From assembly GCA_964477545.1 (NCBI GenBank), contig CAYZEJ010000001.1, positions 11-64,010 on the forward strand: a DNA stretch of 64,000 nucleotides, read 5' to 3'. Position 1 is the stretch's first letter. Every line of letters starts with the position of its first letter. The position numbers were made by a program, and so were the translations under genes. Positions 12,789 through 63,470 of this stretch are shown here, one piece after another. The DNA is from an uncultured Anaerolineaceae bacterium (GTDB lineage: Bacteria; Chloroflexota; Limnocylindria; Limnocylindrales; CSP1-4). The notes under the pieces were generated by a model that did no database searches, was not told the origin of the DNA, and saw nothing but the letters and a program-made list of their open reading frames with translations.

Positions 12789-12802
12789 GCAACGATTGTT
12801 GC
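12789..12802. promoter_or_regulatory. Inverted-repeat motif GCAACGATTGTTGC (site 1), start of a conserved promoter block shared with 47337-47390
   Basis: Exact GCAAC-N4-GTTGC in the divergent region between the DUF35 operon and MFS gene 1. The downstream block GAGCATGACAnTATCnGTTCCA is conserved in the paralogous promoter. Confidence 0.5.
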
Positions 12803-12887
12803 ACGGACTCGCGGAGCATGACACTATCGGTTCCAGTGGAACCCAGCGGATTCGTGACTGACGCCGACCAGTGGCTCGGCCCCTAAC

Positions 12888-14096
12888 GTGAGGCGGCCCC
12901 GCCTCAGGCCAGAAGCGCCGCCAGATCCGGCGCCCGGTGGAAACGCGGGTACCGGCCCTCCCGCGGACGGTGCCAGAGACCGCGCGTTCTCGATGCTGTC
13001 GATCGCGGGTTTCTCAGTTTCACTTGGCGCGTCAAGTCTCGTCCTGCCGCTGCTCGCAGTCGCGGCCGGGTACGACATCGCTGCCGTCGGTCTGTTCACG
13101 GCGATCTCGGCCGTCTCGCAGCTGCTGTTCAGGCTATGGCTGCCCTGGCTACTGACGCGCTTCCCCGACCGGAACCTGGTCATTACCGCCAACGTGATGA
13201 TGGTTGGTTCATTCGCCGCGCTTCTTTTCAGCACCGCGCTGCCGGCGTTTGTCACCGCACAACTACTCCAGGGCACGGCGCGCGCCCTTTTCTGGACAGC
13301 CACGCAGACGCACGCTGTGCGAAGTGCCGGGGGCCCTGTCCGGGCGCTCTCGATGGTCAACGCAGTCGGGAACCTCGGCCAGCTGGTTGCTCCCGCCATC
13401 GCTGGCGTGGTCGCGGCACAGTCGCTCGAGTGGGGCCTGGCGCTGTGTGCAGCGGCATCCGCGATCGGCCTCTTCACCGGCTTTGGCATGGCGCTGCTGC
13501 CGCCCTTTACCAAGCAGGCACGGCACGGCGAGCTGCGTATCTGGCGCCGGCCCGGCGTCGATGTAGCCTGCTGGGCCTCGTACAGTGCCGGCGGCTGGCG
13601 GGCCATGGTCATGTCGCTCGTACCTGCGGCGCTCGAAGCTGCGGGCCAGCCACGCGCGGTGATCGGGGTGCTGATGATGACGTCGGAGGCGACCGGCCTG
13701 GCCACAGCTGCCGTGCTCGTCCGCTTCCGCGTGCCTAACGTCCCGGCCGCCATCCAGCTCGCCGTTCTGATGCTCACCACCGCCCTTGTGTTGTTCCCGT
13801 TTGTGGCCTCGAACCCCGTCACCGCGGCGCTGGCGATGGCGCTCGGCGGGCTCGGGTCAGGCCTGCTGATGAGCCTCGGTCCGGCGCTGGCGACGATGTC
13901 CGTCCGACCCGAGGAGCGGGGCGAGGCGATCGCCGTGGCCGGTACGTTTCGCGCGGTGTCACTGCTGATCACGCCCGGAGCCGCCGCGATCGCCATCGGC
14001 GTCGTCACCCTGCCCGTGGGCATGGTCGTGGCTGGCCTGGTCATCGGCATTCCGCCGATCGTCGCTGGGCTTCTTCGGGCGACGCGCGCAACCTGA
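12888..14096 (+). CDS. MFS transporter (paralog 1)
   Basis: 12 predicted TM segments. About 70% identical to 47485-48678. Confidence 0.8.
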   Translation: MRRPRLRPEAPPDPAPGGNAGTGPPADGARDRAFSMLSIAGFSVSLGASSLVLPLLAVAAGYDIAAVGLFTAISAVSQLLFRLWLPWLLTRFPDRNLVITANVMMVGSFAALLFSTALPAFVTAQLLQGTARALFWTATQTHAVRSAGGPVRALSMVNAVGNLGQLVAPAIAGVVAAQSLEWGLALCAAASAIGLFTGFGMALLPPFTKQARHGELRIWRRPGVDVACWASYSAGGWRAMVMSLVPAALEAAGQPRAVIGVLMMTSEATGLATAAVLVRFRVPNVPAAIQLAVLMLTTALVLFPFVASNPVTAALAMALGGLGSGLLMSLGPALATMSVRPEERGEAIAVAGTFRAVSLLITPGAAAIAIGVVTLPVGMVVAGLVIGIPPIVAGLLRATRAT

Positions 14097-14138
14097 TTCG
14101 ATCACACCCACCCGAGCTGCCGACCAGAACGCATTAGG

Positions 14139-15122: not shown

Positions 15123-15147
15123 TCCCTAGATCAGGCCTCCAAGCTGG

Positions 15148-16683
15148 TCACGCTCGGGCGCCCTCCTCCACCACGCCCGTTCCGTTGCCGGCCGAACTGT
15201 CAGCAGCCGTGCCATCAGTTGCGCCGCGGGCCGCGCCATCTCCGCTGCCATCGTTGGCCGGCTTGTTCAGGATCCAGCCCCAACGCTTGCGCGTTTCGCG
15301 CTTGGTCTCGACGTCCGGCCCGATCGTCCGCGGAAACCTGTCGCGCCACTCCCACGGGATCGTCGCGTCGTACAGCATCCGCGAGTTGAAGCCCTTGTGG
15401 TCGGGATGGATGGCGGGGTCGAGCGGGCCCGAATATGCGCGTTTAATGAGGTCGATCGAGCGCTCCGGATCGCCGCGCGTGACCATCGCCCAGACCACGT
15501 CCTCCAGGTCCGTCACGTCGATGTCTTCATCGACGACCACGACGATGCGCCCGAGGTAGGCCCCGGTGTGGCACATCGCTGCGACGTGCAGCGCCTGCCG
15601 GGAATGGCCAGCGTAGCGCTGCTGGATCGAGATGACGTTGAAGAGCCGCGTACCGCCCAGCGCGAAACACCATGCGTCGACCACGCCCGGCACGCCGGCC
15701 CGCTTGAGGTCGCGCAGCAGGAGGGCCGAGCGCAGGTGATCGCGGTAGCGCATCGGCTCCCAGGGCGGCTTGTTGGGCGGCACGCCGAGCAGGATGGGGT
15801 CGTTGCGGTGGTAGACCGCCTCGACCTCCATGAACGGCTCCTCATGCTCTCCTGAGGCGTAGTAGCCATGCCACTCGCCGAACGGGCCTTCCATCATCCA
15901 CTGGTCGTGGCGCAGGAAGCCCTCGAAGACGATTTCAGCGTGCGATGGGATCGGCAGCCCGGTAATAGGCCCCTTGACGACCGGATAAGGCTCGCCGCGA
16001 ATGCCGCCGAGCCAGTCGTACTCGGACACGCCGTAGGGCACCTCCAGCGTCGAGGCCATGAACAGCAGCGGATCCATGCCCAGGATGATCGCCACGGGCA
16101 TGGGCTCCTGGCGTTTGAAGTACACGTCACGGAACTGGATGCCGTGCTTGCCGGGCGAGATGTAAACGCCTACCCGCTTGTCATCGTGGACCTGCACACG
16201 GTATGTCCCGACGTTGATCCAATCCGAGTCGGGGTCCTTGATCACGACGCCGACGCCCGTGCCGATATAGCGGCCGCCATCGTGCGGATGCCACCACGGC
16301 GAGGGGAACTTCAGGACGTTGACATCGGCGCCCTTGTCGACGTTCTCGAAAACCTCGCCGCCATCCTGCACGGACGGTGGCACTGCGCGTCCGGCCTCCG
16401 TGAGCTCGAGGAAGCGGTCCATCAGTGGGCGCCGCTCGATGTCCTCCGGCAGGCCCAGTGTGAGCGCGAGCCGTGGCCGGGTGGCCAGGGCGTTGGCCAG
16501 GATGCGGTAGCCCGCTGGATAGTCCGGGATCTGATCAAAGATCACCGCGGGCGCGTCATCAGTGTGGTGGAGCATCTCGGTAACACGGCCGATATCCTCC
16601 TGCCACGAGGCTTCGGTAACCTCGCGCAGCTCGCCGCGCTGACGTACGCGCTCGATCCAGTCGCGCAGGTCGCGATACTCCAC
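15148..16683 (-). CDS. UbiD-family (prFMN-dependent) decarboxylase, paralog 1, with a Gly/Ala/Ser/Asp-rich C-terminal tail
   Basis: UbiD family with the EGPFGEWHG motif. 511 aa. Confidence 0.9.
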   Translation of the reverse strand: MEYRDLRDWIERVRQRGELREVTEASWQEDIGRVTEMLHHTDDAPAVIFDQIPDYPAGYRILANALATRPRLALTLGLPEDIERRPLMDRFLELTEAGRAVPPSVQDGGEVFENVDKGADVNVLKFPSPWWHPHDGGRYIGTGVGVVIKDPDSDWINVGTYRVQVHDDKRVGVYISPGKHGIQFRDVYFKRQEPMPVAIILGMDPLLFMASTLEVPYGVSEYDWLGGIRGEPYPVVKGPITGLPIPSHAEIVFEGFLRHDQWMMEGPFGEWHGYYASGEHEEPFMEVEAVYHRNDPILLGVPPNKPPWEPMRYRDHLRSALLLRDLKRAGVPGVVDAWCFALGGTRLFNVISIQQRYAGHSRQALHVAAMCHTGAYLGRIVVVVDEDIDVTDLEDVVWAMVTRGDPERSIDLIKRAYSGPLDPAIHPDHKGFNSRMLYDATIPWEWRDRFPRTIGPDVETKRETRKRWGWILNKPANDGSGDGAARGATDGTAADSSAGNGTGVVEEGARA

Positions 16684-16785
16684 GGTTTGCTACCTCCACA
16701 CGGTGGCACGGCCGATGCTTGCCTCGCCGGGACATCGTACAGAGTGTCACGATGTAGTGCGCAATCCAGTGCAGAAACGGTTGAC

Positions 16786-16831
16786 AGCAGCAATTGTTGT
16801 GTCAGCATCCTGTCAGGGGAGCAACCGTTGC
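16786..16831. promoter_or_regulatory. Divergent promoter region with GCAGCAATTGTTG and GCAACCGTTGC inverted repeats and TTGACA/TGTCA arms
   Basis: Variants of the GCAAC/GTTGC arm motif in the 261-bp divergent region between UbiD 1 and LLM 1. Confidence 0.4.
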
Positions 16832-18048: not shown

Positions 18049-19035
18049 ATGCTTCGATTGACCATTGCTACCGGCCTGTACGACCGCACTGCGGCGCTAC
18101 ACGATGGGCGCATCCGCCCGGAGGGCGTCGACGCCACTTGGCTGGCGCTCAACGTGGAGCAGATCTTCTGGCGCATGCTCCAGCACGGCGAGTTCGACGC
18201 CAGCGAGCTGTCGCTGGCGAGCTATGTGATCAGGCGCGATCAGGGCCATCGAGACCTGGTCGCCATCCCGGTCTACCTCTCGCGCACGTTCCGCCACGAC
18301 TGCATCTACGTCAACGCCGACGCGGGCATCAGCGAGCCTCGGGAGCTTGTCGGGCGGCGCGTGGGGGTGCCCGAGTACCAGATAACGGCGGCGGTCTTTG
18401 CCCGCGGCCTGCTGTCGGATGACTTCGACATCGATCCTCGTCAACTGGAGTGGCTGCAGGGTGGGCTCGAGGAGCCCGGCCGCGTGCCGCACACGAAGGT
18501 CGAGCTTCCCGCTGACATCCGCGTCTCCATGATCGGCGAGGACAAGACACTGGCGCGCATGCTCGAGGAGGGCGAGATCGACGCGCTGATCAGCCCACGT
18601 GTGCCCTCTACTTTCCGAAGCGGTCGGGGCAAGGTCGTACGGCTCTTCGAGAGCCCGTGGGCGCAAGCGCGCGACTACTACAGCCGAACCGGGATCTTCC
18701 CGATCATGCACCTGGTCGCGGTTCGTTCGGAGCTGGTCGAGGCCAACCCATGGCTGCCGCAGACGCTTGCACGGGCGTTCGGCGCGGCCAAGGCGATAGC
18801 TGACGCCAACCTGCGCGAGACAGCCGCGCTGCCGATCAGCCTGCCGTTCCTCGTGGAGCACTTCGAGCAGACCGCCGCTTTGATGGGCGCCGACTTCTGG
18901 CCGTACGGGGTGGAGGCCAACCGGCCGACGCTGGAGGCGTTCATCCGCTACGCCCACGAGCAAGGGCTTATCAAGGAGCGTCCCGCTATCGAGGAGCTCT
19001 TTCCGGCCAGCACCCAGCGAACGTCGCGACTATGA
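18049..19035 (+). CDS. PhtD-like protein (4,5-dihydroxyphthalate decarboxylase family, NMT1-related PBP fold), cytoplasmic, paralog 1
   Basis: N-terminus MLRLTIATGLYDRTAALHDGRIRPEG without a signal peptide. Family assignment is from memory of similarly annotated proteins. Confidence 0.65.
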   Translation: MLRLTIATGLYDRTAALHDGRIRPEGVDATWLALNVEQIFWRMLQHGEFDASELSLASYVIRRDQGHRDLVAIPVYLSRTFRHDCIYVNADAGISEPRELVGRRVGVPEYQITAAVFARGLLSDDFDIDPRQLEWLQGGLEEPGRVPHTKVELPADIRVSMIGEDKTLARMLEEGEIDALISPRVPSTFRSGRGKVVRLFESPWAQARDYYSRTGIFPIMHLVAVRSELVEANPWLPQTLARAFGAAKAIADANLRETAALPISLPFLVEHFEQTAALMGADFWPYGVEANRPTLEAFIRYAHEQGLIKERPAIEELFPASTQRTSRL

Positions 19036-19065: not shown

Positions 19066-19079
19066 GCAACTCTTGTTGC
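19066..19079. promoter_or_regulatory. Inverted-repeat motif GCAACTCTTGTTGC (site 3) plus half-site CGCAACGATTG at 19093-19103
   Basis: Exact GCAAC-N4-GTTGC upstream of tctC. Confidence 0.5.
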
Positions 19080-19141
19080 AGGCTCGTATGATCGCAACGA
19101 TTGCGGCCGCGAGGTCGCGCAAGCGAGGAGGTCCTGTCCCG

Positions 19142-22781: not shown

Positions 22782-22795
22782 GCAATCGTGGTTGC
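22782..22795. promoter_or_regulatory. Inverted-repeat motif GCAATCGTGGTTGC (site 4, one mismatch)
   Basis: Lies in the divergent region between the PNPOx-like gene and the 13-gene CoA operon. Confidence 0.4.
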
Positions 22796-22829
22796 AGCGA
22801 GCCTAGGTGGGTGAAACAATCGATGTCAA

Positions 22830-28267: not shown

Positions 28268-28389
28268 GAGGAGGTCAGCTCGGCGACAGTGGCAACAACG
28301 AGTGTTCCAATCACGGGGCACCCGTGCTATGTTTCGTTGCATCGTTGGCGAGGGCGCGAGCCACTCGGACAAGGGGAGTTGGAGCGGAC

Positions 28390-30159
28390 ATGCGAGTTGT
28401 CGACGCTGTTGCGGAGTGGTTCGAGACAGTTGGGCTGACGCACTACTTCGGCTACGCGGGGGGCGCCATTTGGCCGCTGCTCGACGCCTTCGTCGACAAG
28501 CCCAACATACGCGGCATCCAAGCCAAGAACGAGGGTCATGCGGTGCACATGGCCGACGTTTACTACCGCATTACCGGCAGCATCGCGCCGGTGCTGGTGA
28601 GCAAGGGTCCCGGTCTGCTGAACACCGTTGGCGCGACGGCCAGTGCGATGCACGACAGCTCGGCGGCGCTGATCCTGGCCGGCTCGGGCTCGACTCACTT
28701 CCTCGGCCGTGCCGGGATGCAGGAGATGTTCTACCGCGGCTTTGAGAGCGCCGTCGATGTGTTCCGGCCGATCACCAAGGGCGCTTGGCTGGTCGTGCGC
28801 CCCGACCAGGTGATCGACGTTCTGAACGCTGCGCTCAAGGGGGCTACCAGCGGTCGACCGGGCCCGGTCTTCGTGCAGATCCCGTATGACATCCAGCTTG
28901 CAGAGGTAGAGGGCGAGGTCGAGCACATCGGGCGGCGCAGCGCGCTGCCGGGCATGCGCGCTGCGCCGGAAAACATCGAGCGTGTCGTCGCCCTGCTCGA
29001 GCAGGCCGAACGGCCGATGCTGCTGGCGGGCGGCGGCGTGGCTCGCTCACGCGCAGCCGACAAGCTGTGCACCACCGCGGAGAGACTCGGCGTGCCGGTC
29101 GTCACCACACTGCCCGCCAAAGGCATCTTGCCCGAGGATCATGCGCTGTCGCTCGGGCCAGTGGGGCGCTCGGGTACTAATGCCGCCGCACGCGCGACGC
29201 GCGAGGCGGACCTTGTAATTGCGGTCGGCGCACGCTTCTCGGACAACCACACGGGGAACTGGCGCGAGGGCATGATCTACGACGTGCCACGTACCAAGAT
29301 CGTGCAGGTCGATGTCGACCCCGCCGAGGTCGGGCGCAACTATCCGGTCGAAGTGGGCCTTCTGTCCGACGCCGGAGCCTTCCTTGACGACCTTCGCAAT
29401 GCCGTAGGCGACGGTAGCCCAGCGCGCCACGCGGGCTGGGCCAAGTCCGTGGAGGGCTACCGCGACGACTGGCGAGCTGAGATCGAGGAGGTCATCAAGC
29501 ACGCCGGCTCGCCAATTCACCCGGGCCGGCTGTGCTACGAGGTAGGCGAGGCACTGCCCGCCAACGGCCACGTGCTGATCGACGTGGGCGACGTGATTCA
29601 GTATGCCGAGCCGTACATGACCATCCGCCGCCCCGGCTCGTGGCACATCAACTCGGGCATGGCCGAGATGGGTTGGGCGACACAGGGCGGCCCCGGCGCT
29701 GTGATTGCGGATCCCGGCAGCATCGCCGTCGTGCTGACCGGTGATGGTGCGTTCCTGATGGGGCCCCAGATCGTCGCCACCGCGGTCGAGTACGGCCTGC
29801 CGGTGGTCTGGGTGATCCTGAACAACAATGAGCTGGGCATTGAGCGCAAGGGCGCAACGGCGGCATTGGGCCGTCCTCACCCGTGGTACTCGTTTACCCG
29901 TCACGATACCGGCGAGCCGTACAACCCCGACTTCGCTGCCGCCGCACAGGCGTACGGAGCCGGGGGCGAGCGCGTCGAGAACGCGGATGACTTCCGCCCG
30001 GCGCTCGAGCGAGCGATCGACAGCGGCCGCCCGTACGTCCTCGACGTGCCCATCGATGTCTCAGTCCCGACGTTTTTCGTCAAGGGTCTCGATCGCGCCT
30101 ACCCCAACAAGTGGGCTCAGAGCTATCCCGGCTACGGGCTGCTGAGGAACAAGCAATGA
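28390..30159 (+). CDS. Thiamine-diphosphate-dependent enzyme (acetolactate synthase / oxalyl-CoA decarboxylase / 2-hydroxyacyl-CoA lyase family)
   Basis: TPP-binding GDGAFLM motif and three-domain architecture. RBS AGGGGAG upstream of ATG 28390. Confidence 0.85.
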   Translation: MRVVDAVAEWFETVGLTHYFGYAGGAIWPLLDAFVDKPNIRGIQAKNEGHAVHMADVYYRITGSIAPVLVSKGPGLLNTVGATASAMHDSSAALILAGSGSTHFLGRAGMQEMFYRGFESAVDVFRPITKGAWLVVRPDQVIDVLNAALKGATSGRPGPVFVQIPYDIQLAEVEGEVEHIGRRSALPGMRAAPENIERVVALLEQAERPMLLAGGGVARSRAADKLCTTAERLGVPVVTTLPAKGILPEDHALSLGPVGRSGTNAAARATREADLVIAVGARFSDNHTGNWREGMIYDVPRTKIVQVDVDPAEVGRNYPVEVGLLSDAGAFLDDLRNAVGDGSPARHAGWAKSVEGYRDDWRAEIEEVIKHAGSPIHPGRLCYEVGEALPANGHVLIDVGDVIQYAEPYMTIRRPGSWHINSGMAEMGWATQGGPGAVIADPGSIAVVLTGDGAFLMGPQIVATAVEYGLPVVWVILNNNELGIERKGATAALGRPHPWYSFTRHDTGEPYNPDFAAAAQAYGAGGERVENADDFRPALERAIDSGRPYVLDVPIDVSVPTFFVKGLDRAYPNKWAQSYPGYGLLRNKQ

Positions 30160-31055
30160 ACGCACAGTCGACCGAAGTCAACGCCGACGCGGATGTCATT
30201 TCGGCACTGCGCCACAGCTACGACGAGCTGACGCGCTCGCAGAAGCGAATCGCCGAGGCGATCGTCGACGATCCCGAGTTCGTTGCCTTCGCAACCGTCG
30301 ACAAGATGGCCAGCCGGCTGGGTGTCAGCCCATCGACCGTGGTGCGCTTCACGTATCGATTAGGGCTCAACGGCTACCAGGATCTGCAGGAACGCGTTCG
30401 GTTGCTGGTCCGGTCACAGATGCGTTCGGCCGCGGGCGATGGTGATGAAGCCCAGGTTATCGCCCACCTCGGCGATACCGCCTTCGCACGATCGTTCGAG
30501 CGCGACCTGGACCATCTCCGCCGGACGATCGCTGGGCTCGACCGCGACGCGCTCGAACGTGCCGTCGAGCTGCTGGTTGCCGGCAGGCGTGTGCTGGTGA
30601 CCGCGGACGCGACGGCCCGCAGCGTTGCGTATTTCACGATGCTCGCGCTCGATCGCATGCGTGGCGCGACCGACCTTGTACGTGCCGACGGTGACAGCGT
30701 GGGCCGGCTGGTAGACATCTCACCGGAAGACGTCGTACTGGCCTTCACCTTCCCACCCTATGCCTCGAGCGTCCTTCGGATGGTCCGCTGGGCACACGAG
30801 CGGCGAGCCCGCATCATCGCCGTGACCGACTCGCCGATCTCGCCCGTCGGCCAGCTGGTGGATGTCGTGTTGCCTGCTCTGTCGTCCGGCATCGGAGCCC
30901 ACAACACGCTGGTTCCGGCGTTGGCGATTGCCAACGCACTGACTAACGCCTTCGCCGTGCACGAGCGCGCAACCGCCCTCGACCGCTACGGCACCGCTAA
31001 CCAGTTGATGGAGCAGTGGGACCACTACGTGCTGAAGTCCGGCGATGAGCGATGA
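30156..31055 (+). CDS. RpiR-family transcriptional regulator (HTH + SIS domain)
   Basis: HTH rpiR-type N-terminus and SIS domain. ATGA overlap with the TPP enzyme. Its 3' end overlaps the next gene by 11 nt. Confidence 0.75.
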   Translation: MNAQSTEVNADADVISALRHSYDELTRSQKRIAEAIVDDPEFVAFATVDKMASRLGVSPSTVVRFTYRLGLNGYQDLQERVRLLVRSQMRSAAGDGDEAQVIAHLGDTAFARSFERDLDHLRRTIAGLDRDALERAVELLVAGRRVLVTADATARSVAYFTMLALDRMRGATDLVRADGDSVGRLVDISPEDVVLAFTFPPYASSVLRMVRWAHERRARIIAVTDSPISPVGQLVDVVLPALSSGIGAHNTLVPALAIANALTNAFAVHERATALDRYGTANQLMEQWDHYVLKSGDER

Positions 31056-35859: not shown

Positions 35860-35880
35860 CCTGCAACGGATGTTGCGACC

Positions 35881-38735: not shown

Positions 38736-41731
38736 TCAGCCGCTCCAAGTGCGGCCAGCACCCGCATCCTCGAAAGCGGCAGGTCCGTGAGCCAGACGCC
38801 TGTCGCGTTGTGGAAGGCATTGGCGAGTACGGGCCCAACCGGCGGCGTCGAGGCCTGCCCGATGGCCAGCGCCCCGTACGGCCCGTAGTCCTGCGGCACT
38901 TCGACGAAGTCGACGATGATCGGCGGCACCTCGCCGAAGGCCATCGGCTTGTAGTCGAGGATGTTGGCGTTGACGGGCAGCCCGGTGCGCTCGTCGATCA
39001 ACAGCTCCTCGTACAGCGCGCCGCCGAGGCCCATCCCGACTCCGCCTTCAACCTGTTGCTCGAGCATGAGCCGGTTGAGCACCTTGCCCACATCGTGGAC
39101 GGCGACGTAACGACGGATGTCAATCTTGCCCATGTGGGTGTCGACCTCGATCTCGACCGCGTGCGCTCCGGTGGCAACCGATTCGCTGGTCAACTGCCGG
39201 CGGCGGTCGGAGGCACCGACTATCGGCTCGGCGAGCCCCGCCACGACCTCCCGAACCGCCACTCGGTGTCCGTTGCCGGGCACCGACACCCAGCCGTCGC
39301 GGATCTCCAGCGACTCTGGCTCGATCGAGGCGCCGTTTGACAGTATCGGCGCGGCCAGGCGGCGAACCTCGTCGCGCACCTGCTCTGCGGCGTCGACGAC
39401 GGCCCAGCCGCCGACATTCATCTGCAGTGATGAGTTGGATGGTCCGGTGTTGGTATTGAATGCGGTGTCGACGCCGGGCAGGATGCTCACTTCGTCGAGC
39501 GGGATGCCCGTCGTCTGCGCCGCGAGCATGGCCAGCAGCGTGCGCTGGCCGGCGCCCACCTCGGTGCTGCCCGAGCGTACCTCGAGCGTGCCGTCGGGGT
39601 GGAGCAGCACCTGGCCGGTCGAGGGCGGCGGCAGGCCGTCCTTGGAAGTACCGCCCTGCTTGCCGCCGCCACGGTCGATCGCCGAGACGATGGCCATGCC
39701 GTGGAACACGCCTGGACGCACCTCGCGCGCCGCCGGTGGATGCCACTTCTCGCGCCAATCGATCAGCTCGGCCGCGCGCTCGAGCGACTGGCGGTGGCCG
39801 CCGACCCGACCAAAAGGCAGGCCCGGCTTCTCACCTGTCAGCTCGTCGAAGAGGGAGCCGACCTCGTTGAGATTCTGCAGCCGGAAGTCGAGCGGGTCGG
39901 CTCCGATCGCGTTGGCGGCACGCTCCATGGCTGTCTCGAGCGCGAACAGGCCGTAGTGGCGGCCCACGCCGCGCATGGGCCCGGCGCGGAAGTTGTTGGT
40001 CCAGACCTCGGTTCCGGCGTAACGCTGGTTGTCGTACGTGTACAGGATCTGGAACGGGTACCAGCCGCCCAGCACGCCGACGCCGGTCAGGCCGCGAGCC
40101 GCCGCGGCGCTGGGCGGCAGCCCGGCGTTCGTACCGCCGTCGTAGAGCACATCGACCGACAGGCCTGTGAGCTTGCCGTCGCGAGTGAGGCCCATCTTGA
40201 CGTTCGTCCTCGTCCGGCCGCGATGGGCCGACGTCAGGAAGCTTTCTTCGCGGCTGAGCATCGCTCGCACCGGCCGCTCAACGATCCTGGCCATGACCGC
40301 CGGGAGTGCCAGCTCCTCGACCAGCTGATCGGCCGAGCCGTACGACGAGCCCATGTAGCCGGTCTGGATGACGCGGACCTGCTCCTCGGGCAGCGACAGC
40401 CACTTGGCCAGCTCGCGCCGCACGTCGAAGGTGCGGTGTGTCGTTTGCCACGTCGTCAGGGTGTCTGCCTCCCAGGAGTACAGGCCCGTGCGCAGCTCGA
40501 GCGGCAGGTGCTGCTGGTAGGGAGTGGTCGAAGTCGACTCGACCAGCACCTCTGCCTCGGCCAGTGCGGTCTCCGGGTCGCCGATGACGACCGGGCCGAG
40601 CACGTTGCGTATGGTGCCGGGGTAGATGTTGTCCCACTGCTGTTCGGCGCCGGTGGCCTTCTCGAAATCGAGCGCCGGCTCGAGAGCCTCGTACTCGACC
40701 TCGATCTTTGACAGCGCGTCCTCGGCGAGATGCTCAGACTCCGCCGCCACGACCGCGACGGGCATGCCGACGTGAATCACCTCCTTGTTGAGCAGCCTGC
40801 GCTCGGGCGGTCCCTCGATGACGATCGAGCGGTATGGCTCGGGCAAATTGAAGGCGTGCAGGACGCGCACGACGCCGGGCATCCGCTCCGCGGTCGCGGA
40901 GTCCACGCGCAGCACGCGCGCCCGCGGGTAGGGCGAGCGAAGGGTGCGCACGAAGACCTGGTTGGGCAGCGACATCAGGCTGACGAAGTCGGCCTCGTCG
41001 GTGATCTGGGCACGGCCGTGGATGCGCGGCACGCGCGTGCCTAGCACCTCCGACGTGTGCGGCATCAATGTCTCGCGCGGCGCCGGCGCGGACGTCGGAT
41101 CGCGCATCTCCACCGCTGCCCGCTGAACGGCGCGCACGATGCGCTCCTGCTCACCGCAGCGGCACAGGATGCCCGACAGCGCGTCCTTGATCTCGGACTC
41201 GGACGGGTCCGGGTTGCGCTCGAGGAGTGCGAGCGAGGTCATCAAAAAGCCCTTGGTGCAGATGCCGCACTGGAACGCACCGTCTTCCCAGAATGTGCGC
41301 TGAAGCGGGTGCAGGCCGGATATGCCGGGACCGCTCGCCAGCCCGGCGGCGGTGCGCACCTCGCAGCCGTCAAGACGTGCAGTGAGCAAGGCACAGCTGT
41401 TGACGGAGCGACCGTCGACGATCACGTTGCACGCGCCGCACTGCGCCCGGTCACAGCCGAGGTTGGCGCCACGCTCGCCGAGACGCAGCGCGAGCGTCTC
41501 CCACAGGCTCTCGCGTGGCTCGACTTGAAGAGCGTGGACGACGCCGTCAATCGTCAAAGAAGCAGAGTGCCAGGACGACGCTGAGTCGTTGGCGGCTCGT
41601 GCTGCTGTGGTGCGCGGACCAGTGGGACGCTTCAAGGCGCCTCGCAACATTGGATCGAAATCTCGGCGGGCGCTACGCGTGACGAAGGGGACCTCGGCAA
41701 CGGATCCGCCACTATGGCATTCTCGGCGCAA
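38732..41731 (-). CDS. Fused [2Fe-2S] small subunit + molybdopterin-binding large subunit of a xanthine dehydrogenase / aldehyde oxidase family enzyme
   Basis: N-terminal ferredoxin-like and 4-helix FeS motifs (CDRAQCGACNV; CGICTKG...CRCG) followed by about 850 aa of aldehyde oxidase/XDH Moco domains. True start may be the ATG at 41650. Confidence 0.85.
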   Translation of the reverse strand: MRRECHSGGSVAEVPFVTRSARRDFDPMLRGALKRPTGPRTTAARAANDSASSWHSASLTIDGVVHALQVEPRESLWETLALRLGERGANLGCDRAQCGACNVIVDGRSVNSCALLTARLDGCEVRTAAGLASGPGISGLHPLQRTFWEDGAFQCGICTKGFLMTSLALLERNPDPSESEIKDALSGILCRCGEQERIVRAVQRAAVEMRDPTSAPAPRETLMPHTSEVLGTRVPRIHGRAQITDEADFVSLMSLPNQVFVRTLRSPYPRARVLRVDSATAERMPGVVRVLHAFNLPEPYRSIVIEGPPERRLLNKEVIHVGMPVAVVAAESEHLAEDALSKIEVEYEALEPALDFEKATGAEQQWDNIYPGTIRNVLGPVVIGDPETALAEAEVLVESTSTTPYQQHLPLELRTGLYSWEADTLTTWQTTHRTFDVRRELAKWLSLPEEQVRVIQTGYMGSSYGSADQLVEELALPAVMARIVERPVRAMLSREESFLTSAHRGRTRTNVKMGLTRDGKLTGLSVDVLYDGGTNAGLPPSAAAARGLTGVGVLGGWYPFQILYTYDNQRYAGTEVWTNNFRAGPMRGVGRHYGLFALETAMERAANAIGADPLDFRLQNLNEVGSLFDELTGEKPGLPFGRVGGHRQSLERAAELIDWREKWHPPAAREVRPGVFHGMAIVSAIDRGGGKQGGTSKDGLPPPSTGQVLLHPDGTLEVRSGSTEVGAGQRTLLAMLAAQTTGIPLDEVSILPGVDTAFNTNTGPSNSSLQMNVGGWAVVDAAEQVRDEVRRLAAPILSNGASIEPESLEIRDGWVSVPGNGHRVAVREVVAGLAEPIVGASDRRRQLTSESVATGAHAVEIEVDTHMGKIDIRRYVAVHDVGKVLNRLMLEQQVEGGVGMGLGGALYEELLIDERTGLPVNANILDYKPMAFGEVPPIIVDFVEVPQDYGPYGALAIGQASTPPVGPVLANAFHNATGVWLTDLPLSRMRVLAALGAAE

Positions 41732-41741
41732 AAGTTGTTGC
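41728..41741. promoter_or_regulatory. Inverted-repeat motif GCAAAAGTTGTTGC (site 6, one mismatch)
   Basis: Lies in the divergent region between the molybdoenzyme operon and ridA. Confidence 0.4.
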
Positions 41742-42184: not shown

Positions 42185-42373
42185 ATCGCCCGGCGTCGTC
42201 GATTTCGCGCAGCACCAAATTTTGCGTCAGAGCCCTGTGTCTGCCAAAAACCGTTGCAGAGGCGCGTAGTATCTGCGCAGCCGAGGCGGCCCCGCTCCGG
42301 CGCAGGCTGCCATTCCGCGGCACGTCGCTGGGCTCGGTCCACGCGGCCAGCAGCACAAACGAGGAGGAGCCAG

Positions 42374-47021: not shown

Positions 47022-47336
47022 CAGCTGAGTGGGTGTCGCGGGGGCAGCGGCAGACCGTGACCTCCACGGCGTTACGCGCGCGTGAAGGCCGCGCCATAGA
47101 AATGCCGAATCACTTGAGCGGCGTGGGAGGTTCGGCGCAGGGCGCGCTCAGGGAACGAGACCTCGCCACATATACGGCAGCGATTTCCGAGGAGAGTGAC
47201 CTCGCCCTCCGGCCCCACTGTCCAGCGTCCTATTCGCGGTTGCGCCAACTCGCCTCCCAGTCATGCCCCAGCGAGCGAACGGCTCCCTGACACTTTGGGC
47301 AAGTGGAGCGCAGTCTAGGAGCAGCCGGCGGACATC

Positions 47337-47350
47337 GCAACGATTGTTGC
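47337..47350. promoter_or_regulatory. Inverted-repeat motif GCAACGATTGTTGC (site 7), start of conserved promoter block 47337-47390
   Basis: Exact copy of the site-1 motif plus the downstream GAGCATGACAGTATCCGTTCCA block. 135 nt upstream of MFS gene 2. Confidence 0.5.
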
Positions 47351-47484
47351 AGCGTGTTGCAGAGCATGACAGTATCCGTTCCACGCCTCCCGGAGCCCTG
47401 GCTGCCCGGTGATCCGGCAAACACCTCGGAGGGTCCCACCGTTCATCGAATCACGACGGCCATTACCAACCGGGACGCGCGAGC

Positions 47485-49755: not shown

Positions 49756-50820
49756 ATGAGGTTCTCGATCGCATCTCTCGGCGAAGAGCCGGCCGACCGC
49801 TTCGTCCCGTACGTCCGCCTGTGCGAAGGACTGGGCTTCGACTCCTTCTGCCATGCCGACGAGAAATGGACCCGCGATGTGTACGTGCGCCTCGCACTGG
49901 CCGGCGCGGCGACCTCGCGGATCGGTCTCGGCATCACGGTTACCGACCCGTACACGCGACATCCGGCGCTGACTGCCCAGGCCACGGCGACGCTTTCGGA
50001 GGCGACAGGTGGCCGTCTGCGAGTCGTCCTCGGCGCGGGCAGCCACTTCGAGACGCTTCCTGGTTACGCGTCGGTCAGGCCCGCCGTCGGCATCCGCGAG
50101 TCGGCGGAGCTCATGCGCCGGCTGTGGGCCGGCGAACGCGTGACGGTCGACGGCGAGATGGTCAAGTTCACGAACGGGACCTTGGACTTCGAGCTGGCTC
50201 CTGAGCACCGGCCAGCGCTTTGGGTGGCGGGCCGCGGGGAATTCGTCCTGCAGTCGGGCGGCGCCGTCGGCGACGGGGTGCTCATCGGAAGTTTCGCGAC
50301 GCCCGAGGGCATTCGATGGGCCAAGTCGAAGATCGAGAAAGGCATGGCCTCGTCTGGACGGTCGTGGTCCGATGTGAGCCTGGCGTCGTGGCTCTATGTC
50401 GCCGTCCTGGAAAACGAAGACGATCCGGTGCCCGAGGGGGTGCGGCGCGGCGTCAGCCACGCGCTCTGGAGTAGCCGCGCAGTCGTTACCCCACTGCTCG
50501 AGGGCGTCGAGATGAAGAACGCCGACGAGTTCCGGCGGTTTCTGACCGATGCGCCGCACGAATGGTCGCCCGAGATCATGGCCGAGCTCCGCCGCCTCAT
50601 CCCGCGCGAGGTGTTCGATGTCCTTGCGCTGGTCGGAACCGCCGACCAGGTTGCAGGCCGGCTGGCGGCTCTCGAGGCGGAGGGCATCGAGGAGTGCATT
50701 GCGTGGCCATTCCCGCCGGACGGGATGGACGTCGAGGACTATGCGATCCGCCTGGGCAGCGAACTGCTGCCGCGCGTCCGTGGGATTCGCTCGCGGGGCG
50801 AATACCGACTCGTCGACTAG
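49756..50820 (+). CDS. LLM-class F420/flavin-dependent oxidoreductase (paralog 2)
   Basis: About 65% identical to 16945-18033. Confidence 0.85.
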   Translation: MRFSIASLGEEPADRFVPYVRLCEGLGFDSFCHADEKWTRDVYVRLALAGAATSRIGLGITVTDPYTRHPALTAQATATLSEATGGRLRVVLGAGSHFETLPGYASVRPAVGIRESAELMRRLWAGERVTVDGEMVKFTNGTLDFELAPEHRPALWVAGRGEFVLQSGGAVGDGVLIGSFATPEGIRWAKSKIEKGMASSGRSWSDVSLASWLYVAVLENEDDPVPEGVRRGVSHALWSSRAVVTPLLEGVEMKNADEFRRFLTDAPHEWSPEIMAELRRLIPREVFDVLALVGTADQVAGRLAALEAEGIEECIAWPFPPDGMDVEDYAIRLGSELLPRVRGIRSRGEYRLVD

Positions 50821-50830
50821 CCTTGAAACC

Positions 50831-51361
50831 ATGGTTCTGACCGCTGCGAAGCCCCGCCCCATCTACCTTGCCGGGCAGTGGGTCGAATCGCCCGATGTGC
50901 TTGAGGTCAGCAATCCGGCCGAGCCCTCGGGCTCAGCGGGAACCACCTACAACGCCACTCCCGACCAGTACGAGCAGGCCGTGCAGGCCGCAGTGGCCGC
51001 CTTTGAGGTGACGCGGTCGCTTCCGGCATACGAACGCGGCCGAGCGCTGCGCGAGATAAGCGCCGGCCTCACCGCCCGCAGGCTCGAGCTGGGCGCCCTC
51101 ATCCGCTCGGAGATCGGCAAGATCACTGCCGACGCCGTCCTCGAGGTTGACCGAACCGCCCTGACGTTCCGGCTGGCGGCCGAGGAAGCGGAGCGAATGG
51201 TCGGCGAGGTCATTCCACTCGACCTGCTGCCCAGTTCGAAGGGGAGGGTGGGAATCACGCGTCGCTTTCCGATCGGTCCCGTGGCGGGAATCAGCCCGTT
51301 CAACCTGCCTGGCACCCGCTCGACGGCGGCCGCTACATCGGCACCGGCGTCGCCGTGGTGA
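50831..51361 (+). pseudogene. N-terminal ~177-aa fragment of an aldehyde dehydrogenase (homolog of 26822-28267), fused to UbiD remnant DNA
   Basis: Aligns to ALDH residues 1 to about 170 and stops matching at ISPFNLP. The next nucleotides read WHP(L)DGGRYIGTG, which is UbiD sequence, in another frame. Confidence 0.6.
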
Positions 51362-52238
51362 TCAAGGACCCCGACTCAGACTGGATCAACGTCGGGACGT
51401 ACCGGGTCATGATCCACGACGACAAGCGGATCGGGATCTACATCGCGCCGGGCAAGCACGGCAAGCAGTTTCAGGACGCCTACTTCAAGCGCGGTGAGCC
51501 CTGTCCGATCGCGATCGTCTGCGGAATGGACCCGTTGCTGTTCCTGGCCTCAACGCTCGAGGTGCCGCAGGGCGTGTCCGAGTACGACTGGGTGGGCGGG
51601 ATCCGCGGTGAGCCCTATCCGCCACCGGCCGCAAGGACGAGCCGATGATGGAGGTCGCAGGTCTATATCACCGCAACGACCCGATCATCCTCGGCGTCCC
51701 CCCGAACAAGCCGCCGTGGGAGCCGATACGCTACCGCGAGTACCTCCGGTCCGCGCTGCTCCTCCGGAACATGAAGGCAGCCGGGGTCCCCGGCGTCGTG
51801 GACGCGATGTGCTATGCGTTCGGCGGAAACCGACTGTTCACCGTCGTCTCCATCCAGCCGCGCTACGCCGGCCACGCCCGGCAGGCGATGCACGTCGCAG
51901 CAATGGGCCACGCCGGCGCGTACATGGGCCGCATCGTGGTCGTCGTCGAGGACGACATCGACGTCACCGACATCACCGAGGTGCTATGGGCGATGGTCAC
52001 CCGCGGCGACCCGGAACGCTCGATCGACATGATCAAGCGCGCTTGGTCCGGCCCGATCGACCCGGCCATCCATCCGGACCTCAAGGGCCACAACTCGCGG
52101 CTGCTGTACGACGCGACGCGGCCATGGGAGTGGCGCGACAAGTTCCCACCGGCGATCGGTCCTGATCCCGAGACGAAGGCCCGCACCCGCGAGCAATGGG
52201 GCTGGATCCTCTCCGGCGGCGAGCCGCCTTCACGGTGA
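51355..52238 (+). pseudogene. UbiD-family decarboxylase remnant (homolog of 15148-16683) lacking the N-terminal ~150 aa, with an internal frameshifting deletion
   Basis: Two consecutive frames (51355-51648 and 51645-52238) match UbiD 1 middle and C-terminal regions at about 80% identity. About 50 aa between GEPYP and EPMMEV are deleted, which shifts the frame. Confidence 0.6.
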
Positions 52239-53244: not shown

Positions 53245-53340
53245 AATTTCCAGGAAATGGAAGATTCACGTGCGAAAAACGTTGACGGCAACATTTGTTG
53301 CTGGCAGACTCGCCCGGCGCACGGAATTTTCCGCGCATTC
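53245..53340. promoter_or_regulatory. AT-richer regulatory region with palindromes ATTTCCAGGAAAT and GGAATTTTCC, GTTGAC box and GCAACATTTGTTGC (site 8, 53288-53301)
   Basis: A perfect 13-nt palindrome at 53246-53258, an exact GCAAC-N4-GTTGC at 53288-53301, and a second TTCC/GGAA inverted repeat at about 53321-53330. Upstream of the ABC operon, whose RBS GAGGAGG is at 53376-53382. Confidence 0.45.
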
Positions 53341-58619: not shown

Positions 58620-58623
58620 TCAC

Positions 58624-58872
58624 TTGGCCACGATCTTCTACGTCCATTGCCCGCGCTGCAACGGCAAGTTTCCCTGCCACCAGGAGTTGTGGCAGGTCGA
58701 GTACTCGCTGCTCTGTCCGTTCTGCCAGCTGAGCTTCCACCAGGAAGAGAGCCCGCTGATCATCTCCGCGACTGGCGAACGGAAGCCTGGTTCGCGCATC
58801 AAAAGCTTCGCCGCGATCGCTGCGCCGGTCGATGGCGACGTTGACCCGTCGGCGAACGCCGAGTCCATGTAG
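58624..58872 (+). CDS. Small Cys-rich zinc-ribbon protein (82 aa), candidate BsdD/VdcD-like partner of the UbiD decarboxylase
   Basis: TTG start 4 nt after the UbiD stop. CPRCNGKFPC...CPFCQ motifs. Analogy to the small D subunits of bsdBCD/vdcBCD-type operons is inferred from position and size, not from sequence recall. Confidence 0.5.
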   Translation: MATIFYVHCPRCNGKFPCHQELWQVEYSLLCPFCQLSFHQEESPLIISATGERKPGSRIKSFAAIAAPVDGDVDPSANAESM

Positions 58873-61117: not shown

Positions 61118-62476
61118 TCAGAGCGAGACGGCGGCGGTCAACGCGGCGATCGACGGCGACGACTCGAGTGAATCGACGGCTGCGACGATCGACGAGACGC
61201 GGTCGCTGAAGCCGATCGCGACGGCGGACCGGTCGAGCTTCTGCCGGACCTCGTCGGCCGAGAGTGGCCGCCGCGGATCGCCCGGTGGGATGTCCACCTG
61301 TTGCACGAACTCTCGGCCCGCCCGGTCGCGCAGAGTCACCCGGGCGCCGGTCGTTGCCAGGGTTGCGTCCTCCGCGACGACAACGGACTCCGTAGCGAAG
61401 AGTCCGACTCCCGCATCGGCTCGCCGCTCGTCGGCCGTCTGATCGAGCCATGCCTCGCCGTCCGCGAGGACAACCGCAACGGTCCAGCGCGCCGACTGGA
61501 GCGCGGCGAGGCGTGTCTGCCAGCCTGAGCTGCCGTTCAGGGAGAAGGCGCGCGGCGGAAGGTTGACGCGCACGTCGGCAACAGTGGCAAGCCCGGCGGC
61601 CCCAATGGGCAAACCGAGCTGGCCGCGTATGGCGAGCGTGGCATCAATGACCGGCTGAAGCGAGCTCGCGCCCGGCCAGCGCCGCAGCGCTATCGACTCA
61701 AGGAGGTAGTCCGAGCCCAAGCGGTCTGTGAGGCGTTCCATGCGGCCGGTATCGGCGTACGCCGCGAGGAGCCCGCCGCGAGTGGCCGTCAGAGCCGCTT
61801 CCGAGGCGTCGATGCCCGCAGCAGCGAGCTCTGCCGAAAGTAAGCCCGACACCCCGCCGCGGGCCTGATGAACCTTGACACCGCTCGTGCCCAGCGCCGC
61901 AAAGGTGCCGGCCGCTTGACTCGCCGCATGCCCAATCGCGAAGCGGACGCCGCGCCCGTCGAGCCGTGCCACGCGCGCGGCGGCGCATGCTGCGCCGATC
62001 GCGCCCGCGATGCCAGGGTTGTGCCACCCGCGCGCCTCATACGCGTCAGTGTGCAGAGCCTCAGCGACACGGACGGAGACCTCCATCCCCGCCGCAATAC
62101 CGGCGAGCACATCAGCGCCGGTGGCTCCATGCAGCTCGGCGGCGGCAAGTGAGGCGGGCAAGACTTCAGGCAACACGTGCGTCAGCGTCTCGCGGTGCAC
62201 GTCGCCCAGCGTCGGGGCCGCGATCTGGAAACCGTTGAGCATCGCGGCGCCGCCAGCAGCTCTCGGTGTCCCGGCCAGCACCGTCGACGTGCCAGTTCCG
62301 AACACAGACTCGGCCACCGACTCCATCTCGGAATGGTGCTCGGCGAGCACTCCGGCCAGACCGCACGCGAGGGCATCCAAGATGTGCAGCCGTACGCGCT
62401 CCAGGATGCCCGGAGGCATGTCCGCCGGCCGAAGGCTGGAGACGAACTCGGACAGAGTTTCCTCGGCGGTCGTCAC
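61118..62476 (-). CDS. MmgE/PrpD family protein (2-methylcitrate dehydratase / cis-aconitate decarboxylase family)
   Basis: MmgE/PrpD N-terminal region (LHILDALACGLAG). GTGA overlap with the upstream LLM gene. Confidence 0.85.
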   Translation of the reverse strand: MTTAEETLSEFVSSLRPADMPPGILERVRLHILDALACGLAGVLAEHHSEMESVAESVFGTGTSTVLAGTPRAAGGAAMLNGFQIAAPTLGDVHRETLTHVLPEVLPASLAAAELHGATGADVLAGIAAGMEVSVRVAEALHTDAYEARGWHNPGIAGAIGAACAAARVARLDGRGVRFAIGHAASQAAGTFAALGTSGVKVHQARGGVSGLLSAELAAAGIDASEAALTATRGGLLAAYADTGRMERLTDRLGSDYLLESIALRRWPGASSLQPVIDATLAIRGQLGLPIGAAGLATVADVRVNLPPRAFSLNGSSGWQTRLAALQSARWTVAVVLADGEAWLDQTADERRADAGVGLFATESVVVAEDATLATTGARVTLRDRAGREFVQQVDIPPGDPRRPLSADEVRQKLDRSAVAIGFSDRVSSIVAAVDSLESSPSIAALTAAVSL

Positions 62477-63411
62477 ATTGAGAAGGATTCGCGGACGGCG
62501 TCGGCGAGCTCGCGCTGCGCGCTCCGGTACGGCCCGACCACATCCACCTGGAATCGGCGCATCACATGCTGCATGTCGTCCGAATCGGAGTTGGCCTCGA
62601 ACACGACAACGAACTCGTCCACGCCGATCTCATCGAACGCAAGCAGCTCCTGAACCATTGTCTGAGGGGCGCCGTGGAGGCTGTAGACCGGACCTGGCGG
62701 GGCGTCGAACCTGACCCTGGAGCGGACCGACAGTGCGGGCCGCGGCCGACCGGCCGCGCGCGCCCGTTCCAGCAGGACGCGCCACCGCTCGCGCAGGTCC
62801 TGAGGCCCCGTTTGGCTGGCGTGGTAGCCGTCGCACAGCGTCGCGGCACGGGTGAGGGCAGCGTCGGAGCGCCCACCCATCCAGATCGGCAGCGCCGCCC
62901 CCTGGGGTGGCAGGGGATCGAATACGAACCCGTCCAGTCGGTGAAACCGACCCTCGAACGGCTCGGTCCGACCGGCCCACAGGTGCCGCCACAGCGCGAT
63001 TGTCTCGTCCAGGTAGGCACCCCGATGGTTCATGCGATCGGCCTTGCCGAGGTTGCCCCACTCCGGTGCGTCCGTCCGGTCGCCGACGCCCACGCCCACG
63101 ATCAGCCGCCCGCCGCTGAGAACGTCGATCGTGGCAAGCTCCTTGGCCAACTGCGGTGCATCCCGCATCGCTGGGACGACGACGCTCGTGCCGATACGCA
63201 GGGAAGAGTGACGCCCCGCAACCCATGCGAGGGTCGTGACAGCCTCGAGGATGGAGCCATAGGTCGCCGCTTCGGCTCTGGGTGAAACAAGCATGTGATC
63301 CGTCGCCCAGACACTCGACCAGCCGAGGCTCGAGGCAGTCGCAGCGGCGTCATCGACGGCCGCCGGGGACACCCGTTTACCCATGGTCGGGAGGATGAGG
63401 CCGAAGCGCAT
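62473..63411 (-). CDS. LLM-class F420/flavin-dependent oxidoreductase (paralog 3, Rv2161c-like)
   Basis: MRFGLILPTMG start at 63411. The track ORF extends to 63462. Confidence 0.8.
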   Translation of the reverse strand: MRFGLILPTMGKRVSPAAVDDAAATASSLGWSSVWATDHMLVSPRAEAATYGSILEAVTTLAWVAGRHSSLRIGTSVVVPAMRDAPQLAKELATIDVLSGGRLIVGVGVGDRTDAPEWGNLGKADRMNHRGAYLDETIALWRHLWAGRTEPFEGRFHRLDGFVFDPLPPQGAALPIWMGGRSDAALTRAATLCDGYHASQTGPQDLRERWRVLLERARAAGRPRPALSVRSRVRFDAPPGPVYSLHGAPQTMVQELLAFDEIGVDEFVVVFEANSDSDDMQHVMRRFQVDVVGPYRSAQRELADAVRESFSM

Positions 63412-63456
63412 GTGCTGACGAGCTCCCACTCGATGCTGCCAAATTGTGCGCGTCTG

Positions 63457-63470
63457 GCACAAAGGCGGAA
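63457..63470. promoter_or_regulatory. Inverted-repeat motif GGAACGATTGTTGC (site 9, one mismatch)
   Basis: About 50 nt upstream of the LLM-PrpD-PhtD-OCD operon start, in the region shared with divergent apt. Confidence 0.45.

Follow-up and report, generated by a model that had tools for sequence, protein, structure and literature searches.

A 64-kb stretch of contig CAYZEJ010000001.1, analysed over its whole length and hereafter called the window, carries a catabolic gene cluster of ~54 kb (~9.7-63.5 kb) in whose intergenic regions a short palindrome, GCAAC-N4-GTTGC, recurs. Genes were called by third-position G+C and annotated with Pfam, with an NCBIfam scan alongside. The cluster encodes two intact UbiD decarboxylases and a broken third, a UbiX-type flavoprotein, three luciferase-like monooxygenases (LLM), two ornithine-cyclodeaminase-like proteins (OCD), PrpD/MmgE, RidA, and a fused Mo-hydroxylase with its FAD subunit. 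It further contains a set of ACAD, CoA-transferase, MaoC, CitE-like and aldehyde dehydrogenase (Aldh) genes, a thiamine pyrophosphate (TPP) enzyme, three family III CoA-transferases, an enoyl-CoA hydratase and SCP-x-type thiolase/DUF35 pairs. Transport is represented by TctCAB, two MFS proteins, a Liv-type ABC system and an NMT1-type ABC system. Co-transcribed inside a CoA-transferase operon lies rpiR (30156..31055, plus strand), which encodes a regulator with HTH_6 and SIS domains. Pfam found no other DNA-binding protein in the window, in agreement with the initial annotation of this sequence, which had named RpiR as its only regulator.

The cluster is bordered by housekeeping genes. The left flank (1-9.2 kb) holds yqeY, a 7TM-HD protein gene, ybeY, DUF1684, pth and mfd, and at the right end a truncated open reading frame (ORF) with no Pfam match reads by sequence as an adenine phosphoribosyltransferase (apt). 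The initial annotation had described the region as an island. This is apt in the sense of a gene cluster and not in that of a demonstrable mobile element, as a tRNA scan of the window found none, the Pfam and NCBIfam scans of the called genes (a few short ORFs lay outside them) returned no integrase or transposase, and the G+C profile is flat at 67%. An Rfam scan of the window gave no match.

The palindrome and its predicted promoters

The exact motif GCAACNNNNGTTGC (GCAAC-N4-GTTGC) occurs five times in the window, starting at 12789, 19066, 35863, 47337 and 53288, against 0.05 copies expected from 100 dinucleotide shuffles. The earlier estimate of less than one chance occurrence per 64 kb therefore stands, as do the four copies listed with it; the count fell short of the fifth, at 35863-35876. 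Allowing one mismatch yields nine copies against 2.27 expected and adds 22782, 41728, 63467 and 48677, the last of which spans the MFS2 stop codon, scores under the 10-bit matrix cut-off used below and looks like a chance occurrence. There is no excess in the window at two mismatches (42 copies versus 35.3 expected), so the signal is carried by near-exact copies. The symmetrised consensus of sites from other genomes is GCAACAATTGTTGC, with 6-bp arms GCAACA/TGTTGC flanking two bases, and GCAACA-N2-TGTTGC, 14 bp in length, is a better notation than GCAAC-N4-GTTGC. The T-rich spacers of the older notation (GATT, TCTT and ATTT) arise because each ends in the T of the TGTTGC arm.

Scanning the window with a matrix built from non-window sites only produced 13 matches of at least 10 bits, compared with a mean of 3.2 in 30 first-order Markov simulations. 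Judged after refinement of start codons, 12 of these 13 are intergenic, where intergenic DNA makes up 6.1% of the window, bearing out the intergenic placement first reported. The matrix added two weak intergenic sites, at 42212 and 28295. The strong sites are all intergenic and lie 29-190 nt 5' of start codons. Between ~9.7 and 63.5 kb a site is found upstream of each of the 12-14 transcription units, and the housekeeping flanks (yqeY to mfd, and apt) have none.

A fixed register with predicted promoter hexamers emerged when 35 sites from the window and related loci (identified below by L numbers) were pooled. At 16 of the 35, TTGAC plus one nucleotide stands directly 5' of the 14-mer (chance 5e-4), and in 14 of those 16 an nAnnnT hexamer follows exactly 17 nt after the -35 (chance 0.027), typical -10 hexamers being CAGACT, GAGAAT, CACGAT and CATACT. 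The palindrome in this arrangement, which we term class A, fills the 17-nt spacer between -35 and -10 and is centred near -22.5. Its members in the window are 53288, 41728 (on the minus strand) and 16787, the last of which has TTGACA and no nAnnnT 17 nt further on. The second arrangement, class B, has a -35-like TTGCAx that the right arm, GTTGCA, provides, as seen at 12789, 47337, 22782 and, on one strand, at locus L001 of Jiangella asiatica; the accompanying -10 is TGA-CACTAT, TGA-CAGTAT or AACAAT at 17 nt, or GATAAT at 16 nt in L001. The motif thus has the form of a 6-2-6 palindromic operator that overlaps its target promoters. Because the two registers lie 16 bp apart, occlusion of RNA polymerase fits both, while a single activation geometry does not.

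The leftmost operator, GCAACGATTGTTGC (12789..12802, no strand assigned), occupies the divergent gap between DUF35-thiolase-SDR-UbiX (minus) and MFS1 (plus), and its right arm yields the -35-like TTGCAC (12799-12804), followed after 17 nt by TGA-CACTAT (12822-12827). The same sequence, GCAACGATTGTTGC, returns at 47337..47350 (plus) 5' of MFS2-unk327-LLM2, with TTGCAG (47347-47352), 17 nt and then TGA-CAGTAT (47370-47375). The MFS1 and MFS2 proteins, old paralogues, are 68% identical, and their upstream regions, a decayed DUF35 remnant among them, align at background level (8-14 matches per 25 columns) with the exception of two adjacent 25-column blocks, each 20/25 identical (40/50 over 50 nt), which hold CGCAACGATTGTTGCA and GAGCATGACAnTATCnGTTCCA, that is, operator and promoter. 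Such a conserved block amid diverged flanks has the character of a footprint of selection on these two elements. Site-to-site similarity is likewise confined to the 14-mer and the promoter hexamers.

Two regions first described as a single variant and a half-site prove to be more complex. The range 16786-16831, in the divergent region between UbiD1-OCD1 (minus) and LLM1-unk328 (plus), contains two degenerate copies: GCAGCAATTGTTGT (16787..16800, plus), abutted by TTGACA (16781-16786), and GGAGCAACCGTTGC (16818-31). The half-site placed at 19093-19103 is part of a second degenerate copy, GCAACGATTGCGGC (19094..19107, plus), which lies around the predicted transcription start, 28 nt past the operator GCAACTCTTGTTGC (19066..19079, plus) 5' of tctCAB; TATGAT (19087-19092) follows that operator after 7 nt. 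Variants reported at 22782 and 41728 are correctly placed, and the one given as 63457-63470 is really at 63467-63480.

Two weak sites belong to the transcription unit that includes rpiR. The first, GCAATCGTGGTTGC (22782..22795, no strand assigned), is situated between unk157 (minus) and the ACAD...TPP-RpiR...DUF35b operon (plus), with TTGCAG (22792-22797), 17 nt and AACAAT (22815-22820) ahead of the ATG of the ACAD operon at 22830. As this predicted -10 ends 9 nt before the ATG, a leaderless or near-leaderless mRNA is suggested. The second, ACAACGAGTGTTCC (28295..28308, plus), is internal, in the 122-nt gap between the Aldh and TPP genes just 5' of TPP-rpiR, and is kept in the 97%-identical contig L084. 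The exact copy GCAACGGATGTTGC (35863..35876, plus) begins 4 nt past the DUF35b stop codon and is preceded by TTGACC at a 2-nt offset; only a truncated isochorismatase-like ORF lies downstream.

In the right half of the cluster, the operator GCAACAACTTTTGC (41728..41741, minus strand) serves the Mo-hydroxylase operon (refined start 41650), where it fills the spacer of TTGACT (41747-41742)-17-GAGAAT (41724-41719), and is common to this operon and the divergent ridA (start 41798). A weak site, GCACCAAATTTTGC (42212..42225, plus), precedes the Peripla_BP_6/Liv-type ABC operon (start 42374). The perfect 6-2-6 palindrome GCAACATTTGTTGC (53288..53301, plus) stands 5' of the operon for the NMT1-type solute-binding protein (SBP), ABC components and UbiD2 (start 53391) and fills the spacer of TTGACG-17-CAGACT. 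Finally, GGAACGATTGTTGC (plus-strand letters; 63467..63480, minus strand) lies 54 nt 5' of LLM3-PrpD-NMT1c-OCD2 (refined start 63412), and the orthologous LLM3-operon promoter in L002 carries GCAACGATCGTTCC.

Many operators are accompanied by an auxiliary half-site. In 11 of 28 promoter-oriented sites CGTT(G/C)C follows the start of the motif by 36-40 nt, and in a twelfth by 29 nt; the chance expectation for a 17-position window is ~1.4%. In the window it takes the form CGTTGC at 16826-16831 (with operator 16787), 28335-28340 (with 28295), 41702-41697 on the minus strand (with 41728) and 42252-42257 (with 42212), and CGTTCC at 47377-47382 (with 47337); it is also present in L081, L083, L097, L098, L099 and L002. 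The distance from the right arm to the GTTGC/GTTCC half-site is 31-32 bp, or three helical turns, which puts the half-site at about the predicted transcription start or shortly past it. GTTCC is accepted as a half-site variant because it stands in place of GTTGC in two main operators, 63467 and L002 15471. This geometry suggests cooperative binding by a dimer of dimers.

RpiR and its orthologous loci

The window RpiR has the architecture of its family (HTH_6, 1.9e-14; SIS, 6.3e-11) and matches the RpiR-family chains 3sho, 8ju9, 8k3b and 4ivn in the PDB. It reaches 37-65 bits against NCBIfam equivalog cut-offs of 296-920 for the HexR/RccR/AlsR/MurR groups (48-65 bits against 296-400 for HexR, AlsR and MurR) and, judged by its sequence, is not an orthologue of HexR, AlsR or MurR. 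No helix-turn-helix (HTH) domain was found in the small ORFs unk157, unk106, unk82 and g12 or in the window-end ORF, which were checked in case one of them encoded an overlooked regulator. Among the window genes there is no TetR_N, MarR, IclR or GntR gene, nor any cNMP-binding or CRP-type gene. Homologues of the window RpiR number in the hundreds, with identity down to 54% among the best 120, and several are named as proteins of Chloroflexota or Ca. Limnocylindrales metagenome-assembled genomes (MAGs). The names of the nearest homologues place the lineage in Chloroflexota, close to Ca. Limnocylindrales.

Genomic contexts of orthologues were obtained mainly from exact look-ups of homologues, and a metagenome scan with RpiR gave nine loci. 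Eleven distinct orthologues (57-73% identity, plus one at 50%) were found in similar clusters, which are always composed of the same families: UbiD, UbiX, NMT1 SBP/ABC, unk330, MFS, TPP enzyme and aldehyde dehydrogenase, together with two CoA-transferases, enoyl-CoA hydratase, thiolase/DUF35, LLM, PrpD and Mo-hydroxylase. RpiR is the only DNA-binding regulator that the related loci have in common; the 11 RpiR loci share no gene of the TetR, MarR, IclR or GntR families, though a TetR-family gene could lie farther off.

The operon around rpiR differs considerably between these loci. In L081, L083, L097 and L098 it runs SBP-ABC-permease-permease-unk330-MFS-UbiD(-UbiX)-RpiR, with an NMT1 SBP as the first gene. 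L091-94 and L102 have TPP-Aldh-RpiR-CoA-transferase, L100 has TPP-RpiR, L099 has LLM-MFS-Aldh-TPP-RpiR, and L101 has ACAD-CoA-transferase-Aldh followed, after a gap, by TPP-RpiR. In the window, the first gene is ACAD and the TPP enzyme follows an internal gap. Wherever the promoter is on the contig, the palindrome is present 5' of the rpiR operon, whatever its first gene (at least five architectures), and a top-scoring matrix match of each 14-21-kb locus falls in this gap. The sites concerned are 22782 and 28295 in the window, 679 in L081, 2230 in L083, 1164 in L097, 1609 in L098, 653 in L091, 280 in L092, 4221 in L099, 7930 in L100, 5905 in L101 and 9 in L102. The operator therefore stands at the transcription unit of the regulator itself and is kept there among orthologues; a regulator gene bearing the site at its own promoter, which the initial annotation had recommended looking for, is found in the window as well as in the orthologous loci. 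Sites of orthologues are usually of class A, that of L102 reading TTGACA-GCAACAAATGTTGC-TGC-GACGAT. In L095, where the 50% orthologue apparently stands alone, a relaxed-pattern match, GCAAAATGTGTTGT, lies ~130 nt upstream.

Site density was compared, using a window-derived matrix, between 10 non-redundant RpiR loci (182.5 kb) and 49 GC-matched loci without RpiR (836.6 kb). Matches of 16 bits or more numbered 15 in the former versus 1 in the latter, and those of 18 bits or more 9 versus 0, so that high-scoring sites are ~70-fold denser in RpiR loci than in the loci without RpiR, which are phylogenetically more distant. A separate scan of genome contigs with the unk328 protein gave 80 loci (L001-L080), none of which encodes an RpiR homologue. 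Of these, 78 lack the exact motif, and matrix matches occur only in the two closest, Jiangella asiatica L001 and the Chloroflexi MAG ACE_CHL4 (L002). These matches are at orthologous promoters, namely those of tctC, LLM3-PrpD-NMT1c and the CoA-transferase-unk328-LLM-TctC-UbiD operon. An XRE-family HTH gene that adjoins the LLM3-operon operator in L002 (225 aa, 15909-16586) was weighed as a candidate regulator; neither the window nor any other locus contains a homologue, and its product is probably unrelated to the regulon.

Remnants, paralogues and a second leader element

Several stretches of the cluster contain incomplete genes. The broken third UbiD consists of two fragments, 51355-51648 and 51645-52238, which come after an N-terminal aldehyde dehydrogenase fragment (50780-51361), and the whole of 50780-52238 looks like gene decay. 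The exact operator copy at 35863 is directly followed by a C-terminal isochorismatase-like fragment (35881-36114), the region 5' of MFS2 holds a decayed DUF35 zinc-ribbon remnant (47100-47260, minus), and a C-terminal ABC-permease fragment (9330-9611, minus) marks the left edge of the cluster. The remnants at 35881, 47100 and 9330 read as signs of past duplication and rearrangement.

The paralogous proteins unk328 and unk327 (18049-19035 and 48771-49754; 328 and 327 aa) are 63% identical and without a Pfam match. Reading by eye revealed no obvious signal peptide. Their relationship to the NMT1/SsuA-type binding proteins NMT1a and NMT1c is distant (30-37% identity). Genes for homologues are spread over many phyla and, in the closest loci, neighbour LLM or UbiD genes; an enzymatic role, rather than one in transport, is conceivable for these proteins. 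Directly 3' of UbiD2 is an 82-aa Cys-rich zinc-ribbon ORF (unk82, 58624-58872), a homologue of which also follows the UbiD2 orthologue in L002 (52% identity), and its product is possibly a small UbiD-associated subunit. Outside the cluster, a 78-aa ORF (4196-4432), located in an otherwise gene-poor stretch (3.9-4.87 kb) between DUF1684 and pth, resembles a Phd/YefM-type antitoxin by sequence alone.

The 5' leaders of NMT1-SBP and MFS operons contain a second palindromic element, of GGAA/TTCC type. It reads CACGGAATTTTCCGCG at 53321-53334, CGGTTCCAGTGGAACC at 12829-12845, CACGGAATGTTCCGTG at ~19570 in L099 and GTGCAACGTTCCGTCCATTGACGG in L081, L083 and L097, and has no Rfam match. None was found at the TPP-RpiR operon promoters of L091, L100 and L102, and it cannot therefore be the autoregulatory site. 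It could be a variant operator, the site of a second factor or a leader RNA element.

A candidate RpiR repressor and its relation to known systems

Given its enrichment, its intergenic placement, its promoter register and its conservation at paralogous as well as orthologous promoters, the whole cluster looks like one regulon under a dimeric DNA-binding protein, as first proposed, and we hold with high confidence that the motif is a transcription-factor operator. The accompanying proposal that the cognate factor is encoded elsewhere, with RpiR a bystander, is probably wrong, since among the 11 other loci the palindrome lies at the rpiR operon promoter wherever that promoter is on the contig. 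We favour the view that the palindrome is the operator of the in-cluster RpiR, acting as a repressor of essentially every transcription unit in the cluster, and consider this the probable explanation. We infer RpiR as the binder, repression as its mode of action, its oligomeric state and its effector from sequence. An RpiR dimer would bind the palindrome, perhaps reaching the auxiliary half-site in tetrameric form, and would exclude RNA polymerase by covering the -35/-10 spacer in class A or the -35 hexamer in class B. In this way RpiR would block all cluster promoters, that of its own operon included, until released by a pathway metabolite bound to the SIS domain. With rpiR inside the cluster, RpiR would control its own synthesis too, and the location of the weakest sites (22782 and 28295) at its own operon would allow basal synthesis of the repressor.

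Several observations weigh against this assignment. The link between RpiR and the palindrome rests on co-occurrence, and phylogeny and RpiR presence are confounded in the density comparison. The two weakest sites (12.6 and 11.1 bits) are those of the rpiR operon in the window itself. The main difficulty is Jiangella asiatica, in which the orthologous operon promoter of L001 carries a good site but no RpiR lies within ±10 kb. The known operators of the RpiR-family proteins HexR and RccR differ from GCAACA-N2-TGTTGC in half-site orientation and spacing. At copy 35863 a convincing -10 and an intact gene downstream are both missing, and this copy may be a stranded operator. Furthermore, a scan of 12.5-23 kb for E. 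coli-consensus promoters returned no sigma-70-like promoter, so that our promoter predictions rest on the TTGAC-17-nAnnnT register.

Some of these points would be accommodated if the palindrome were genuine and bound by another dimeric regulator encoded outside the window, for instance a TetR-family protein of the PsrA/PaaR type, with RpiR controlling something else or acting through the GGAA..TTCC-like leader motif. AAC-N4-GTT operators are typical of TetR-family acyl-CoA regulators (G/CAAAC-N2-4-GTTTG/C for PsrA and CNAACGNNCGTTNG for Thermus PaaR). The Jiangella site with no RpiR within 10 kb, the dissimilarity of the motif to HexR and RccR operators, and the conserved second element at SBP-operon promoters all speak for such a protein. 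However, genes of the TetR, MarR, IclR and GntR families are missing from the window and none is common to the 11 RpiR loci, the motif follows the rpiR operon through its at least five architectures, and the GGAA/TTCC-like element does not occur at TPP-RpiR promoters. We therefore regard an outside regulator as rather unlikely, while taking it seriously. The bound protein, whether RpiR or another, might instead be a class II activator centred near -40. At 12789, 47337, 22782 and the plus strand of L001 the palindrome overlaps a weak -35-like TTGCAx, and these centres, near -38.5, come close to the classical activator position of -41.5. This is nevertheless improbable, as 16 of the 35 palindromes fill the TTGAC/-10 spacer near -22.5, which is not compatible with activation, the two classes are ~1.5 helical turns (16 bp) apart and cannot share one geometry, and the auxiliary half-sites are located near the predicted transcription start or past it. 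The hallmarks of a CRP/FNR-type 5-N4-5 activator, a -41.5 position at all targets and a CRP/FNR gene, were not found.

It is also conceivable that the repeats are not protein sites at all, and represent a promoter cassette or small repeat spread by duplication, or chance palindromes. The paralogous modules of the cluster (MFS, unk328, LLM, UbiD, OCD and NMT1) and its gene remnants do show duplication and rearrangement. Against this, similarity between sites stops at the 14-mer and the promoter hexamers, with the flanks of the MFS pair at background; there are two different registers relative to the -35; and the sites persist at orthologous promoters of genomes with a protein identity of 57-73%. 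Flanks that are unrelated save for promoter hexamers and that lack an Rfam match are not those of a dispersed repeat of the REP or MITE kind, and the chance expectation of 0.05 copies leaves little room for coincidence. We give this explanation almost no weight.

If RpiR is indeed the repressor, then a regulator, an operator and a regulon become linked in a poorly studied, mostly uncultured lineage, and the reach of the RpiR/SIS family extends beyond carbohydrate metabolism. About 50 genes of an unknown pathway, among them those for two or three UbiD decarboxylases, UbiX, a Mo-hydroxylase and the 328-aa NMT1-like protein, which reads as cytoplasmic, would become one co-regulated unit, a strong functional clue to its substrate. 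We found no paper that pairs RpiR with UbiD or prenylated-FMN (flavin mononucleotide) systems, and a search of PMC5934670 for an RpiR box or a palindrome gave nothing. More tentatively, the cluster may exemplify an uncharacterised RpiR/SIS subfamily, widespread in Chloroflexota-like soil and freshwater bacteria, that moved from sugar sensing to organic-acid pathways of UbiD/UbiX and CoA-transferases, responds to a non-sugar effector and, as a dimer of dimers, represses at least a dozen operons. In such a subfamily the organic acids would probably be aromatic or heterocyclic, the effector might be a CoA thioester, to name one candidate, with phosphates that fit the SIS pocket, and the dimer of dimers would bridge the spacer operator and the half-site three helical turns downstream. 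Operator and promoter together might also be put to use in high-GC hosts as a compact inducible part. The regulon itself is of a familiar kind and introduces no new regulatory principle.

The resemblance to known systems can be seen at several levels. TetR-family regulons of the PsrA/PaaR type share with the present one a 14-bp palindrome with an AAC-N4-GTT core, placed over acyl-CoA and CoA-transferase promoters and associated with repression. Their arms are GAAAC/GTTTC, whereas those described here are GCAACA/TGTTGC, and no TetR-family gene is found in the window or the related loci, nor a TetR_N gene in or next to the cluster. Classical spacer operators likewise have a palindrome that fills the 17-nt spacer, as at 14-16 of the promoters predicted here, and occlusion of polymerase would be expected; this likeness is one of mechanism and implies no homology. 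Closest in protein architecture are HexR and RccR of Pseudomonas, which have the same combination of HTH_6 and SIS domains as the window RpiR, itself the product of a Chloroflexota-like organism. Both are apo-repressors of the RpiR family that are released or modulated by a small ligand, and their operators are pseudo-palindromic, some of them located in their own promoter regions (PMC5489143). HexR recognises TTGT-N7-8-ACAA and RccR TGTAGT-N3-ACTACA, the half-sites of the latter occurring at two spacings (PMC5489143), which parallels the main operator and auxiliary half-site of the window. The regulon is also not one of sugar or phosphosugar metabolism: its genes encode UbiD/UbiX decarboxylases, CoA-transferases, monooxygenases and organic-acid transporters.

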